Virus record (IMG/VR): IMGVR_UViG_3300009506_000019
Location: 64,001 to 128,000 of that record
Strand: one strand, 5' to 3'
Length of the DNA stretch: 64,000 nucleotides
DNA from: a virus
Position numbers and translations under genes: made by a program. The stretch's first letter is position 1, and the number at the start of each line of letters is the position of its first letter. Positions 26,379 through 29,782 of this stretch are shown in pieces. Below the pieces are notes generated by a model. The model made no database searches, was not told where the DNA came from, and worked only from the letters and a program-made list of their open reading frames with translations.

Positions 26379-26394
26379 TACATTAAAACGATTA

Positions 26395-26470
26395 TGGCGG
26401 GAGAGGAGGGACTCGAACCCTCATCAAACAGGTTAACGGCCTGTTGCTCAGCCAATTGAGCTACACTCCC
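26395..26470 (-). tRNA. tRNA-Asn(GTT), C33
   Basis: Cloverleaf, loop CC-GTT-AA, encoded CCA. Confidence 0.88.
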
Positions 26471-26474
26471 GCAT

Positions 26475-26549
26475 TGGTGGGGCGGAGTGGAATCGAACCA
26501 CTGCTCTCGGATTTTCAGTCCAAAGCTCTACCAACTGAGCTACCACCCC
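26475..26549 (-). tRNA. tRNA-Phe(GAA)
   Basis: Cloverleaf, loop CT-GAA-AA, CCA. Confidence 0.93.
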
Positions 26550-26552
26550 ATG

Positions 26553-26625
26553 TGCAGAGCTGGTCAGCCACGCGCTACCCATCCCAGATTGTGCTGGGCC
26601 AAAGCCTTGTCCGCTGCGCTCTGCA
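26553..26625 (-). ncRNA. Unassigned tRNA-sized structured RNA
   Basis: 8-bp closing stem TGCAGAGC/GCTCTGCA, CCCAG/CTGGG hairpin, no TTCGA loop. Confidence 0.45.
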
Positions 26626-26638
26626 ACTCTTACTTGTT

Positions 26639-26715
26639 TGGTGGACCGGACGGGACTCGAACCCGTGACCTCCTGGGTGCAAACCAAGCGCTCTCCCAAC
26701 TGAGCTACGCGGCCC
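26639..26715 (-). tRNA. tRNA-Ala(TGC)
   Basis: Loop TT-TGC-AC, G3-U70, one bulged base in acceptor stem, CCA. Confidence 0.92.
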
Positions 26716-26716
26716 A

Positions 26717-26792
26717 TGGAGCTGGTGAGAGGAATTGAACCTCCAACATCCGGTTTACAAGACCGGGGCTCTGCCAATTGAGCTACACCAGC
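26717..26792 (-). tRNA. tRNA-Thr(TGT)
   Basis: Loop CT-TGT-AA, CCA. Confidence 0.93.
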
Positions 26793-26810
26793 TCTTTGCC
26801 AGCGTTCAAT

Positions 26811-26885
26811 TGGCGGGCCTACTCCGACTCGAACGGAGATCTCCGGTTTTGGAGACCGGCATCCTACCAATTGAACGATAGACCC
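26811..26885 (-). tRNA. tRNA-Trp(CCA)
   Basis: Loop CT-CCA-AA, CCA end. Confidence 0.92.
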
Positions 26886-26905
26886 TTGTTTCTTCACCAC
26901 CCGGC

Positions 26906-26980
26906 TGGTGGGCCGGGAGGGAATCGAACCCTCAACAAACGGGTTAAAAGCCCGCTGCGCTACCGTTGCGCCACCGGCCC
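26906..26980 (-). tRNA. tRNA-Lys(TTT)
   Basis: Loop CT-TTT-AA, CCA. Confidence 0.93.
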
Positions 26981-27014
26981 ACACCGCCGATGGTCTTCTC
27001 CTCAGCGAACCGGA

Positions 27015-27091
27015 TGGTCCGCCAGGGAGGACTCGAACCCCCGACACGCGGGGTAGAAACCCGCTGCTCTGTCCAACTGAGCTACTGACGG
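27015..27091 (-). tRNA. tRNA-Arg(TCT)
   Basis: Loop TT-TCT-AC, CCA. Confidence 0.9.
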
Positions 27092-27111
27092 ACAGATCCG
27101 ATATTCGCGAC

Positions 27112-27187
27112 TGGTAGGCGAGGGGAGAATCGAACTCACCAACCTGTCGCTTATAAGGCGACGGCTCTACCATTGAGCTACTCGCCA
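27112..27187 (-). tRNA. tRNA-Ile(TAT)
   Basis: Loop CT-TAT-AA, U1:U72 mismatch, CCA. Confidence 0.88.
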
Positions 27188-27199
27188 TTTCTCTCGAGT

Positions 27200-27274
27200 T
27201 GGACCGCCAGGTCGGAATCGAACCGACGTGCGCCTGCTTGGAAGGCAGGGGACCAGCCACTAGCCCACTGGCGG
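27200..27274 (-). tRNA. tRNA-Gly(TCC)
   Basis: Loop CT-TCC-AA, U73, CCA. Confidence 0.9.
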
Positions 27275-27277
27275 TTT

Positions 27278-27353
27278 TGGTGCGCAGAGCAGGGCTCGAA
27301 CCTGCGACCCTCTGCTTGTAAGGCAGACGCTCTCCCAACTGAGCTACCCGCGC
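27278..27353 (-). tRNA. tRNA-Val(TAC)
   Basis: Loop CT-TAC-AA, CCA. Confidence 0.93.
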
Positions 27354-27355
27354 AC

Positions 27356-27431
27356 TGGTCCAGGTGAGTGGAATTGAACCACTGACATCACGATTATCGG
27401 TCGTGTGCTCTCCCATCTGAGCTACACCTGG
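27356..27431 (-). tRNA. tRNA-Ile(GAT), C33
   Basis: Loop CC-GAT-AA, CCA. Confidence 0.9.
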
Positions 27432-27443
27432 ACAATGAAAGGC

Positions 27444-27567
27444 GGGGCTGGGGCGTCGCGCTCTTTCCATGCATCGACCATTCGCACCCTCTGGCTTAGC
27501 GAGCCAGCGCACAGTTTCTGGGGTGTCAGCCCCATGGTCTACCCCACGCTCTGACAAGCGTTGCCCC
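27444..27567 (-). ncRNA. Unassigned multi-stem RNA with complementary (kissing) loops
   Basis: Hairpin loops TGTCAG and CTGACA are exact complements; additional GACCAT/ATGGTC and CTGGCT/AGCCAG stems. Confidence 0.6.
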
Positions 27568-27574
27568 ATAATTT

Positions 27575-27649
27575 TGGTAGCGGGAGCGAGAATCGAACTC
27601 GCGACGGTCTGGTTATGAGCCAGATGTTCTACCACTGAACTATCCCGCA
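27575..27649 (-). tRNA. tRNA-Met(CAT)
   Basis: Loop CT-CAT-AA, U1:U72 mismatch, CCA; initiator/elongator status unclear. Confidence 0.88.
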
Positions 27650-27660
27650 ACAAATGCAAG

Positions 27661-27736
27661 TGGAGGGCCAGGCAGGAGTCGAACCCGCGACACCTTGGTC
27701 CGTAGCCAAGTGCTCTGTCCACTGAGCTACTGGCCC
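27661..27736 (-). tRNA. tRNA-Arg(ACG)
   Basis: Loop CT-ACG-GA, CCA. Confidence 0.92.
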
Positions 27737-27738
27737 TT

Positions 27739-27814
27739 TGGCGGTGCGTACGGGAATCGAACCCGTCGTTTCCTGAGTGACAGTCAGGCCGGTTCACCAG
27801 CTCCGTCACGCACC
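27739..27814 (-). tRNA. tRNA-Asp(GTC)
   Basis: Loop CT-GTC-AC, G73, CCA. Confidence 0.9.
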
Positions 27815-27901
27815 GAGACGTGACCCAACTGTCCTTCAGTAGGTTCTGACCGTTTTGTCGATACCACCGAAGGAGGTCAGTTAGGCCACGGTGGTATCTC
27901 G
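27815..27901 (-). promoter_or_regulatory. Putative attenuator: mutually exclusive RNA structures between leader 1 and tRNA-Asp
   Basis: Perfect 10-bp GATACCACCG/CGGTGGTATC helix competes with long CGTGGCCTAACTG..TCCTTCGGT/ACTGAAGGA-CAGTTGGGTCACG hairpin. Confidence 0.65.
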
Positions 27902-27988
27902 AAAATTCGCTTTAATACCGGCCCACATTGTCGTCGTTATGACGACTCTTCCGGTCCTTGCGACCGAATGTGTGCCGAGGGGTAACAT
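27881..27988 (-). CDS. Putative leader peptide 1 (35 aa) of the 14-tRNA operon
   Basis: MLPLGTHSVARTGRVVITTTMWAGIKANFRDTTVA*; last 27 residues use exactly the 12 amino acids of the downstream tRNAs; ATG 7 nt after TATAAT. Confidence 0.8.
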   Translation of the reverse strand: MLPLGTHSVARTGRVVITTTMWAGIKANFRDTTVA

Positions 27989-27995
27989 CACGATC

Positions 27996-28024
27996 ATTAT
28001 AACACAGCATGCTGTGCGTGTGAA
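27996..28024 (-). promoter_or_regulatory. Sigma70-type extended -10 promoter of the 14-tRNA operon, with 14-bp palindrome in spacer
   Basis: TTCACA-17nt-TATAAT, TGn; CACAGCATGCTGTG at 28003-28016. Confidence 0.75.
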
Positions 28025-28031
28025 TTATTAG

Positions 28032-28115
28032 TGCTGAGGGCGGGACTCGAACCCGCACGAGCAATTGCCCAGGAGATTTTAAGTCTCCAGTGTCTACCAA
28101 TTCCACCACCCCAGC
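28032..28115 (-). tRNA. tRNA-Leu(TAA), CCA not encoded
   Basis: Long variable arm, loop CT-TAA-AA, ends A-CTA. Confidence 0.92.
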
Positions 28116-28116
28116 T

Positions 28117-28202
28117 TGGTGGGCAAGGAGGGAATCGAACCCTCAATCCCGAAGGCACTGGTATTTGAAGCCAGCGTGTATACCAAGTTCCACCACTTGC
28201 CC
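28117..28202 (-). tRNA. tRNA-Leu(CAA)
   Basis: Long variable arm, loop TT-CAA-AT, CCA. Confidence 0.9.
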
Positions 28203-28280
28203 ATGAGCTACGCGCCCTGGAACCCTGTCGTAGCTCGATGACGCCCTCCTACGTGCTTGACGCCACACCACTTTCTCGAT

Positions 28281-28366
28281 TGGTGGGTGCGGAGGGAGTC
28301 GAACCCTCAATCCCGAAGGCACCAGATCCTAAATCTGGCGTGTATCCCAAGTTCCACCACGCACCC
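28281..28366 (-). tRNA. tRNA-Leu(TAG)
   Basis: Long variable arm, loop TT-TAG-GA, CCA. Confidence 0.92.
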
Positions 28367-28367
28367 T

Positions 28368-28453
28368 TGGTACGGGAGGCGGGACTCGAACCCGCACGGA
28401 CAAGCCACATGCTCCTCGGGCATGCGCGTCTACCATGATTCCGCCACTCCCGT
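28368..28453 (-). tRNA. tRNA-Leu(GAG), C33
   Basis: Long variable arm, loop CC-GAG-GA, CCA. Confidence 0.9.
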
Positions 28454-28463
28454 AGCTTACTTT

Positions 28464-28529
28464 TTACAAGGATAAGAGTCGCAGGAGGAAACCTGCGACA
28501 GCGATCGAGTTGTGCGTTTTATTCGCCAT
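28464..28529 (-). CDS. Putative leader peptide 2 (21 aa) of the tRNA-Leu operon
   Basis: MANKTHNSIAVAGFLLRLLSL*; Leu codons CTC CTG CTC TTA TTG; overlaps 8-bp hairpin GTCGCAGG/CCTGCGAC; stop 10 nt before tRNA-Leu(GAG). Confidence 0.7.
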   Translation of the reverse strand: MANKTHNSIAVAGFLLRLLSL

Positions 28530-28538
28530 CTCACTCCA

Positions 28539-28567
28539 AGTATAACATACTGGTGACCGCACATCAA
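28539..28567 (-). promoter_or_regulatory. Sigma70-type extended -10 promoter of the tRNA-Leu operon
   Basis: TTGATG-17nt-TATACT with TGn. Confidence 0.7.
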
Positions 28568-28586
28568 TCATTACCTATATCCGGAC

Positions 28587-28760
28587 ATGGACGAACAGCA
28601 ACAAAAAGATGCATTAGAGTTGTTGAAGGAAGCCACGGCAGCTCACCCAGACATTGTTTATGGAAGACCCAACACAGTAATTTCTCACACAGACATGGTG
28701 AATTGGTTGTATCAGTGGATTCCTCGAGTTCAAGGCTTCCTTGATGAAGTTGATGGATAA
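28587..28760 (+). CDS. Small hypothetical protein (57 aa, below ORF-track cutoff)
   Basis: MDEQQQKDALELLKEATAAHPDIVYGRPNTVISHTDMVNWLYQWIPRVQGFLDEVDG*; fills the divergent gap. Confidence 0.5.
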   Translation: MDEQQQKDALELLKEATAAHPDIVYGRPNTVISHTDMVNWLYQWIPRVQGFLDEVDG

Positions 28761-28812
28761 ATTGACAACCACCACGTGATTATGATCTAATTGGAAGTGA
28801 TAGGAGAACGTC

Positions 28813-28923
28813 ATGGATACCGTGATGAAAAACACAGGCTTCGCTGTTCTTGCCAACGCCCTTGTTGGTCAGTCGCAGCCGTGTTACTCCTATCATCATT
28901 ATTCACAACCACACAGTAGTTAA
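28813..28923 (+). CDS. Putative leader peptide 3 (36 aa) of the 7-tRNA operon
   Basis: AGGAG RBS; MDTVMKNTGFAVLANALVGQSQPCYSYHHYSQPHSS*; last 17 residues are only Q,S,P,C,Y,H; stop 16 nt before tRNA-Ser. Confidence 0.85.
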   Translation: MDTVMKNTGFAVLANALVGQSQPCYSYHHYSQPHSS

Positions 28924-28939
28924 GGCACGCTCACATAGA

Positions 28940-29029
28940 GGAGCGGTAGCCTAGCCTGGTAAGGCGGCGGGTTGCTAACCCGTTGGTGTGCTTGCACACT
29001 CGAGGGTTCGAATCCCTCCCGCTCCGCCA
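28940..29029 (+). tRNA. tRNA-Ser(GCT)
   Basis: Long variable arm, loop TT-GCT-AA, CCA. Confidence 0.93.
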
Positions 29030-29047
29030 TTTTCTTGTGAGGTTGTG

Positions 29048-29230
29048 ATGAAGGATGAATTCAAGAAAGCAGTAATCATGACAGGTGACGTACCGCACTG
29101 TTCGTGTCGGTATTGCAAAAACCTGAATCGCACCAGAATCGACAGGAAAAAGCAAAGAAAACAAAAGAGAAAAAGGAGGGCAAGACAGATTTTGAAGAAA
29201 TATTTACGTACGGGAGTAGCGCAGTGGTAG
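29048..29230 (+). CDS. Small basic protein with HCxCxxC motif inside tRNA operon
   Basis: GAGG before ATG 29048; MKDEFKKAVIMTGDVPHCSCRYCKNLNRTRIDRKKQRKQKRKRRARQILKKYLRTGVAQW*; last codons overlap tRNA-Pro. Confidence 0.6.
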   Translation: MKDEFKKAVIMTGDVPHCSCRYCKNLNRTRIDRKKQRKQKRKRRARQILKKYLRTGVAQW

Positions 29231-29284
29231 CGCACCGGTTTTGGGAGCCGGGGGTCGTGAGTTCAACCCTCACCTCCCGTACCA
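29210..29284 (+). tRNA. tRNA-Pro(TGG)
   Basis: Loop TT-TGG-GA, CCA. Confidence 0.9.
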
Positions 29285-29287
29285 AAC

Positions 29288-29375
29288 GGATGGGTAGCCT
29301 AATTGGTAAGGCACCAGTCTTGAAAACTGGCGATGCATTCGTGCACTGCGGGTTCGAGTCCTGCCCCATCCGCCA
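29288..29375 (+). tRNA. tRNA-Ser(TGA)
   Basis: Long variable arm, loop CT-TGA-AA, CCA. Confidence 0.93.
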
Positions 29376-29384
29376 GCTTAAATT

Positions 29385-29455
29385 GCACCCGGCCGCAGGC
29401 GAAAGCCGAATTGGACCGAGCGAAAGCCGAAAGTCCGAGGATGACGGCCGGGTGC
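29385..29455 (+). ncRNA. Unassigned structured RNA with GAAA tetraloops
   Basis: Perfect 11-bp stem GCACCCGGCCG/CGGCCGGGTGC enclosing GGC-GAAA-GCC and GGAC..GC-GAAA-GC..GTCC. Confidence 0.6.
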
Positions 29456-29460
29456 TTTAT

Positions 29461-29536
29461 GGCGGTTGTAGCTCAATGGAAGAGCATCCGGTTGTGGCCC
29501 GGAAGACGAGGAGTTCAATTCTCCCCAATCGCCCCA
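29461..29536 (+). tRNA. tRNA-His(GTG)
   Basis: G-1:C73, loop TT-GTG-GC, CCA. Confidence 0.92.
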
Positions 29537-29539
29537 AAA

Positions 29540-29614
29540 GGCCAGATAGCCAAGTGGCAAGGCATGGAGCTGCAACCTCCATCATCGTCGGTTCGATTCC
29601 GACTCTGGCCTCCA
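29540..29614 (+). tRNA. tRNA-Cys(GCA)
   Basis: Loop CT-GCA-AC, U73, CCA. Confidence 0.93.
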
Positions 29615-29615
29615 C

Positions 29616-29689
29616 AGAGGAGTCGCTCAATGGCAGGGCAACGGGTTTTGGCCCCGTTTATCTGGGTTCGATTCCCAGCTCCTCTTCCA
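29616..29689 (+). tRNA. tRNA-Gln(TTG)
   Basis: Loop TT-TTG-GC, CCA. Confidence 0.9.
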
Positions 29690-29694
29690 TCCAT

Positions 29695-29782
29695 GGGTGT
29701 GTAGACCGCTATGGACACGGGCTTGGCTGTAGACCAAGCGTGCTTTGGCACCGTGAAGGTTCGATTCCTTCCACACCCACCA
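29695..29782 (+). tRNA. tRNA-Tyr(GTA)
   Basis: Long variable arm, loop CT-GTA-GA, CCA. Confidence 0.9.

Follow-up and report, generated by a model that had tools for sequence, protein, structure and literature searches.

A seven-tRNA operon of a marine-sediment virus is preceded by a 36-codon open reading frame (leader 3) of split composition. As the first-pass annotation had stated, codons 1-19 are free of Gln, Ser, Pro, Cys, Tyr and His, and codons 20-36 encode those six amino acids only. This split is far beyond chance, and leader 3 probably senses tRNA supply, judging from sequence comparison. We regard it as moderately probable that leader 3 is a translated sensor ORF for its own operon. 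The idea that these are sensor codons, also put forward in that annotation, was strongly supported by two relatives (L002 and L001), which keep the split composition while permuting the tail.

The window, meaning the whole 64,000-nucleotide stretch of DNA that was analysed, comprises bases 64001-128000 of a marine-sediment virus record of 166 kb. Twenty-five tRNA genes were located within it at 26395-29782 using ARAGORN and Rfam. They form three operons, one of 14 tRNAs (minus strand), one of four tRNA-Leu (minus strand) and the seven-tRNA operon 3 (plus strand). The order on the plus strand is promoter, Shine-Dalgarno sequence (SD), 36-codon ORF, tRNA-Ser(GCT), 60-codon ORF and the tRNAs for Pro, Ser(TGA), His, Cys, Gln and Tyr (Table 1). 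The promoter scan required A at position 2 of the -10 hexamer and therefore missed the promoter of operon 3, which was read directly from the sequence. In an alignment of the window with L002 and L001 the TTGACA hexamer and the block TATGATCTAATTG were invariant. The spacer between the leader 3 stop codon and tRNA-Ser(GCT) is 16 nt in the window and 7 nt in L001.

Table 1. Features of operon 3 and its leader (positions are those of the window)
Feature	Position	Strand	Remarks
Promoter of operon 3	28762-28791	+	TTGACA at 28762-67, 18-nt spacer ending in TGA, TCTAAT at 28786-91; extended -10 type, near-consensus
Closing helix, 5' strand	28797-28806	+	Contains the leader 3 SD; at or near the predicted transcript 5' end
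SD of leader 3 (AGGAG)	28802-06	+	Read from the sequence
Start-codon hairpin	28809-28827	+	Encloses ATG 28813-15; eight pairs; kept in three sequences, with one-sided G.U/A-U changes
Leader 3 ORF	28813-28923	+	36 codons; ATG at 28813-15; homologous ORFs at L002:2136-2252 and L001:6733-6843
Sensor tail	28870-28920	+	17 codons; residues QSQPCYSYHHYSQPHSS; codons for all seven downstream tRNAs
Anti-SD (closing helix, 3' strand)	28887-28896	+	In the sensor tail, codons TCC TAT CAT; from the fold of the leader
Bracket helix, 5' arm	28892-28917	+	Core 28903-28915
tRNA-Ser(GCT)	28940-29029	+	First tRNA of operon 3; ARAGORN; Rfam tRNA model, 62 bits; within the loop of the bracket helix
Bracket helix, 3' arm	29034-29059	+	Start region of the 60-aa gene; GAGG 29039-42, ATG 29048-50
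60-aa gene	29048-29230	+	Cys/His motif and Arg/Lys-rich stretch; stop codon 29228-30 lies inside tRNA-Pro (29210-29284)
Remainder of operon 3	29210-29782	+	tRNA-Pro(TGG), Ser(TGA), 86-nt structured insert, His, Cys, Gln, Tyr; ARAGORN, Rfam

The six amino acids of the tail are those of the seven tRNAs of operon 3, and a cognate codon is present for each tRNA. Both serine codon families are used, as had been noted earlier (TCG, TCC and TCA, and AGT twice), matching tRNA-Ser(TGA) and tRNA-Ser(GCT). The length of the C-terminal run of residues within the set was determined across the 166-kb phage genome, in which 4670 stop-to-stop frames have 20 codons or more; leader 3 gave a run of 17, and the next best frame gave 9. 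By computation, only 35% of the single-base nonsynonymous changes in the tail codons would remain in the six-amino-acid set.

The same genome-wide frame test was applied to the leader of the 14-tRNA operon (27881-27988), scored for its set of 12 amino acids; the run was 27, against 13 for the next best frame. The operon of four tRNA-Leu is preceded by an ORF with five Leu among its last seven codons, a count equalled by one other frame, and this tail is conserved in four sequences. From the runs of 17 and 27 and the Leu-rich tail, the three leaders are each matched to their own operon. The leader of the 14-tRNA operon is separated from its first tRNA by a 66-nt spacer, and a very stable hairpin (z -5.3) extends from the last codons to 5 nt before tRNA-Asp. 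The ATG of this leader lies 7 nt after a TATAAT with an upstream TG (window 27988-27996, minus strand; promoter match 11/12). Such a short distance suggests a leaderless mRNA, which may point to the host group.

Relatives were located through the 57-aa gene directly upstream (28587-28760), for which three were found in ENA and Logan assemblies. The same layout was present on the contigs of two of these, L002 (86% protein identity) and L001/L005 (79%; a 186-kb contig): four tRNA-Leu on one strand, then the 57-aa gene and the tRNAs for Ser(GCT), Pro, Ser(TGA), His, Cys, Gln and Tyr on the other. The L002 contig stops after tRNA-Cys, so that the first five of the seven tRNAs of operon 3 are visible there. 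Leaders were compared in three independent sequences (window, L002 and L001), of which two are close. Both relatives retain the split-composition leader with its promoter block, SD and ATG. The tails read QSQPCYSYHHQPYSQPHSS in L002 and QPSCHSYQHYPYSPQHS in L001, and the N-terminal 19 residues of both avoid the six-amino-acid set. Between the window and L001 the tail has undergone six replacements and gained two inserted residues, all eight within the set, and of 14 replacements in the N-terminal half not one introduces a residue of the set. Residue order in the tail is permuted between relatives, some of the tail is conserved as nucleotide sequence, and indels within the ORF are of 3 and 6 nt, both multiples of three. 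The stop codon is TAG in L001 and TAA in the window and L002. Selection on the composition of the tail, as read from these comparisons, is on which tRNAs it calls for and not on the peptide sequence; a permuted tail with its composition kept is what a putative sensor of tRNA supply predicts.

Near-identical variants were present in reads from four public runs, where the one listed change in the leader is synonymous (28899 T>C, CAT to CAC); a more divergent contig from the public-run data has 12 differences across 28819-29054. Contigs from an RNA library span 26393-29614, including the leader-tRNA and tRNA-small-ORF junctions. This coverage shows neither transcription nor a precursor, since DNA carry-over is possible and the flanking gene is uncovered in DNA runs too.

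Searches among known phage genomes gave matches at the tRNA level only and no relatives. Scans of IMG/VR with two neighbouring proteins, the back-translated tail, the promoter/SD block and the tail of the Leu leader gave nothing, and neither did a scan of JGI metagenomes with the Leu tail. A JGI metagenome scan with the promoter block returned 14 loci, which were rejected as apparently chance matches (tRNA array at 0 of 14). More distant relatives reached through the neighbouring 263-aa and 422-aa genes had no tRNA array next to the anchor gene; a tRNA scan of L020-L023 detected none, and L026 and L027 were judged from gap-free gene maps only. No matched leaders were found by leader scan in two unrelated phages rich in tRNA genes, Tunturiibacter phage Tunturi_5 and Streptomyces phage Annadreamy, which indicates that they are not a general property of phage tRNA arrays.

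The RNA of leader 3 was folded alone and was found to be unusually stable (z -3.5). The 10-bp helix between 28797-28806 and 28887-28896, which closes the leader SD against codons of the sensor tail, is kept in the window, L002 and L001. Accessibility was estimated by a partition-function model in which the tRNA was replaced by a closed hairpin. In the three sequences, the modelled probability that the leader's own SD is unpaired was 0.00-0.01 in free RNA, 0.87-0.99 with a ribosome on the sensor codons and 0.00-0.02 with a ribosome at the stop codon. In the model, then, the own-SD helix opens only when the sensor codons are masked by a ribosome. The first-pass annotation had assigned another partner to this part of the tail, namely 29046-29055 at the start of the 60-aa gene, for the segment 28888-28898. 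These segments do pair if a one-base bulge is allowed; however, most of 28888-28898 is covered by the anti-SD, and the leader's own SD is the better-conserved partner.

The following course of events is proposed. The near-consensus promoter would fire by means of the host RNA polymerase, and the first ribosome would bind the SD co-transcriptionally, ahead of synthesis of the distal part of the leader. It would decode 19 codons that are independent of the operon's tRNAs and then 17 that need only those. If all seven tRNAs were ample, the ribosome would get to the stop codon, 16 nt before tRNA-Ser(GCT), and depart. The leader would then close on itself, its SD paired with 28887-28896 and its start codon in a hairpin, and the G-poor tail would be bare. 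If any of the seven were short, the ribosome would be held on the tail, the leader SD would be open and more ribosomes would load. A held ribosome would also block pairing of the tail with other partners. One such partner in the window and L002 would be the start region of the 60-aa gene, whose translation would go up moderately on stalling as a lineage-specific add-on, in the manner of ermC-type translational attenuation.

The main output, we infer, would be more tRNA when supply is short. The most likely route would be access of Rho to the exposed, C-rich tail, on the model of the tna operon. In 40 nt of the tail there are 14 C and 4 G, and downstream of the anti-SD the tail is unpaired in the leader-only fold; the C-rich stretch is about 55 nt, which is short for a rut site, and the codon set itself favours C. 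Because C is partly forced by the codon set, and the leader of the 14-tRNA operon is not C-rich, masking from Rho cannot be general. The second most likely route would be by stability or processing of the precursor; control of precursor stability or RNase P access is suggested as an alternative by the position of the leader stop codon, since two of the three operons have 7-16 nt between it and their first tRNA. A scan of the plus strand at 28813-29060 gave no terminator-like site. An intrinsic terminator is therefore lacking ahead of the tRNAs, which excludes the classical attenuator output for leader 3.

Several known systems were compared with leader 3. It resembles the trpL, hisL, leuL, pheL, thrL and ilvL attenuators in that a short, SD-bearing ORF stands before the operon on the same transcript and carries a distal cluster of regulatory codons, whose reading would depend on the end product of the operon in the form of charged tRNA; in thrL and ilvL several amino acids are likewise mixed in one leader. 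The trp leader sequesters its own SD after the first ribosome. The SD of leader 3 is similarly sequestered by a distal segment, which would limit the leader to a first round of translation. The regulated genes here are, however, the tRNAs themselves, and the six amino acids and seven tRNAs represented in the tail are exactly those of the operon. Unlike the trpL/hisL type, leader 3 has no terminator/antiterminator pair with a U-tract, and its stop codon is 16 nt from the first tRNA. By analogy, leader 3 would thus work like leader-peptide attenuation but without the terminator/antiterminator that defines it.

A likeness to ermC, cat and cmlA would lie in the pairing of a leader coding segment with the SD/AUG of the next gene, a site that a held ribosome would free. 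The stall would result from tRNA shortage and not from a drug and nascent peptide. In addition, the leader and the small gene are not contiguous as in ermC and cat, the 90-nt tRNA-Ser(GCT), which is expected to be excised, lying between them, and one relative (L001) is without the regulated gene, so that support for the comparison is moderate. The ermC-type resemblance would therefore be limited to the 60-aa gene. In tnaC (also mgtL and mgtP) the likeness is that a ribosome held at the end of the leader could mask a C-rich, G-poor stretch by the stop codon and so exclude Rho, and that the downstream genes have no ribosomes of their own to shield the transcript; here, however, the C-richness of leader 3 is partly dictated by the codon set and is not shared by the 14-tRNA leader, and a role for Rho is putative. 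T-box riboswitches also set expression by the supply or charging of specific tRNAs, but they bind uncharged tRNA through RNA and regulate synthetase or amino-acid genes, whereas the reader proposed here is the ribosome and the target is tRNA genes. No T-box was matched in the Rfam search.

The 60-codon ORF differs from that of L002 at 19 codons, of which 17 are synonymous and 2 nonsynonymous (3/0/17 by codon position), which shows it to be a real gene under purifying selection. Its product gave no homologue or family in Pfam, PHROG or database searches; it is weakly like the N-terminus of an HNH gene in the L001 array (38% over 42 aa, E 0.06). The 60-aa gene is absent from L001; tRNA-Ser(GCT) is followed there by GGAGG and an ATG with a frame of 10 codons, which enters tRNA-Pro in the same register as the gene does. 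RNase P cutting at tRNA-Pro removes the stop codon, so the full 60-aa protein could be made only from unprocessed precursor, and its translation would require unwinding of the acceptor and D arms of tRNA-Pro.

The central proposal of the first-pass annotation was that the sensor codons base-pair with the ribosome-binding site (RBS) of this gene across tRNA-Ser(GCT), and that a stalled ribosome frees it. The pairing itself was found as described: 12 of the 13 bases of 28903-28915 are complementary to 29036-29048, the second segment holds the GAGG and the A of the ATG, and by coordinates the helix flanks tRNA-Ser(GCT) on both sides. RNAduplex merged this pairing with that of 28888-28898 into one 20-bp duplex (28892-28917 with 29034-29059, -24.8 kcal/mol) with three interruptions. 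Equally strong pairing arose with 0.5% of shuffled 3' arms and with 1.1% of 31-mers drawn at random from the genome, figures that are suggestive only and not decisive alone, since the pairing was found by inspecting the neighbourhood of the leader. L002 retains the 8-bp core, where an A-to-G change has produced one G.U pair, and has lost the three outer pairs through changes in both arms; the four arm substitutions between the window and L002 comprise one G.U, three broken pairs and no compensatory change. A 6-nt insertion in the L002 leader (CAACCC) creates new complementarity to the start of the small gene, partly in a new register, and the L002 duplex reaches -25.9 kcal/mol (2% of shuffles as strong). 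The duplex in L001, which is without the 60-aa gene, is at chance level (-12.3 kcal/mol; 47% of shuffles as strong).

With the tRNA closed, the modelled probability that the start region is paired with the leader was 0.80 in the window and 0.69 in L002. When the sensor codons were masked, the modelled probability of an unpaired start site rose from 0.19 to 0.40 in the window; in L002 it rose from 0.31 to 0.48. Occlusion of the RBS, on a gene that is real, is therefore physically plausible in the window and L002, and to that extent the proposal stood. It did not stand as the core mechanism: a helix this strong is an event of about 1%, no change is compensatory, the opening is modest, and the leader is kept in L001, where the absence of the 60-aa gene means that the pairing cannot explain its retention. 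The bracket pairing goes with the presence of the 60-aa gene, with no covariation support, and is at most a lineage-specific add-on. Pairing in cis across tRNA-Ser(GCT) would moreover be short-lived, as RNase P and 3' trimming would separate the arms.

These data bear on three other explanations. It is possible, though doubtful, that leader 3 senses supply and the helix to the start of the small gene is fortuitous, a CA-rich tail against a GU-rich SD/AUG, with the 60-aa gene an independently translated hitch-hiker and perhaps a remnant of a homing endonuclease. A fortuitous helix would fit the frequency of equal pairings among genomic 31-mers, a discovery made by searching near the leader, the pairs broken by three of the four arm substitutions, the leader retained in L001 and the excision of the tRNA in the loop; the resemblance to the HNH protein would fit a hitch-hiker. 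The duplex nonetheless spans exactly the SD, the AUG and +10 of a gene under purifying selection, and it is strong in L002, where the inserted 6 nt add complementarity to the same region; even in L001 the SD-like GGAGG and the ATG are retained after tRNA-Ser(GCT). That the bracket helix is a processing stem, setting the order or rate of the RNase P, RNase E or RNase III cuts that part the first tRNA from the leader RNA and from the remaining precursor, appears improbable. Its arms are suitably placed, the 5' arm ending 22 nt (core 24) before tRNA-Ser(GCT) and the 3' arm beginning 4 nt (core 6) after it, and when the entire region is folded to minimum energy the helix forms in both the window and L002, with a weaker bracket predicted in L001; the hairpin of the 14-tRNA leader (z -5.3) similarly reaches to 5 nt before its first tRNA. 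Flanks that pair around an excised stable RNA are also found in the processing stems that bracket rRNA, but the bracket helix is much shorter and interrupted, and one of its arms is coding. A helix of 20 base pairs with interruptions is short for RNase III, its pairing is not conserved between relatives, and the operon of four tRNA-Leu has no room for such a bracket.

We attach very little probability to the explanation that the leader 3 ORF is not a sensor at all, and that either its peptide acts in its own right, for example as a modified peptide rich in Cys, Ser, Tyr and His, or its frame is incidental to a conserved RNA element. Translation of the ORF is putative, and the nucleotide-level conservation of a portion of the tail would suit an RNA element. 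Set against this are the three leaders that each match the tRNA set of their own operon, the permutation of the tail within its set, the frame-preserving indels, and the invariance of the SD and ATG.

Returning to the sensor, we think it on balance somewhat likely that the lineage runs a homeostat of tRNA supply, in which each operon is gated by a leader that spells its own tRNAs and a shortage raises operon output, here together with an embedded RNA-binding-like protein. If so, the shortage that acts as trigger could be, for example, attack by a host anticodon nuclease. Phage tRNA arrays are usually seen as constitutive supplements to codon usage or as spares against host defences that cleave tRNA. 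If the leader reads the products of its own operon, phages would measure and adjust their tRNA supply, and ribosome-mediated attenuation, known from amino-acid genes, would apply to tRNA genes as well. Full-text literature searches turned up no case of tRNA genes or operons controlled by a leader peptide, a hit in a paper on pheL being irrelevant; if true, this would be the first such control and the first leader to act as a multi-tRNA barcode. The rule that tail composition equals the tRNA set of the operon is searchable, and a direct test follows from it, in that a change in the tail should alter which tRNA shortage induces the operon. The leader may also offer a compact sensor for several tRNAs at once.

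Further features of the tRNA arrays were recorded. The sole tRNA-Glu of the genome lies isolated between protein genes outside the window (genome 25834-25909), with no leader ORF found before it; with this gene included, the phage tRNAs cover all 20 amino acids. In operon 3, tRNA-Ser(GCT) and the U-run that follows it were considered as a terminator and rejected, as four bases separate the stem from the U-run and the U-run is not conserved. The insert between tRNA-Ser(TGA) and tRNA-His is an 86-nt Y-shaped RNA (window 29376-29461, plus strand) with an 11-bp GC-rich closing stem, GAAA-type loops and a z of -4.6, followed by UUUAUG. It had no match in Rfam and is absent from L002 and L001, where the two tRNAs are 4-11 nt apart. 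On the minus strand, the 143-nt gap between tRNA-Met and tRNA-Ile(GAT) (window 27432-27574) gave no tRNA or Rfam call. The 78-nt spacer between tRNA-Leu(CAA) and tRNA-Leu(TAG) is kept in the window (28203-28280, minus strand) and L001 (L001:5609-5687) and is missing in L002 and L003, in which the two tRNAs touch.

The 14-tRNA operon with its promoter and leader (window 26395-28030, minus strand) is missing as a block in L002 (compared with L002:840-1230), where a homologue of the 263-aa gene abuts the Leu operon; by this presence/absence difference the tRNA operons behave as cassettes. In L001 a 136-aa gene resembling an HNH or zinc-binding homing endonuclease (L001:7517-7927, plus strand) is placed between tRNA-Gln and tRNA-Tyr. 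Tyr codons remain in the L001 leader, which suggests that tRNA-Tyr is still co-transcribed there. An extra tRNA-like gene (L001:7307-7381, plus strand), with the loop region UGUUACAG and an anticodon loop left unassigned by ARAGORN, lies between the tRNAs for Cys and Gln in L001; it could represent a suppressor or carry a loop of eight bases.
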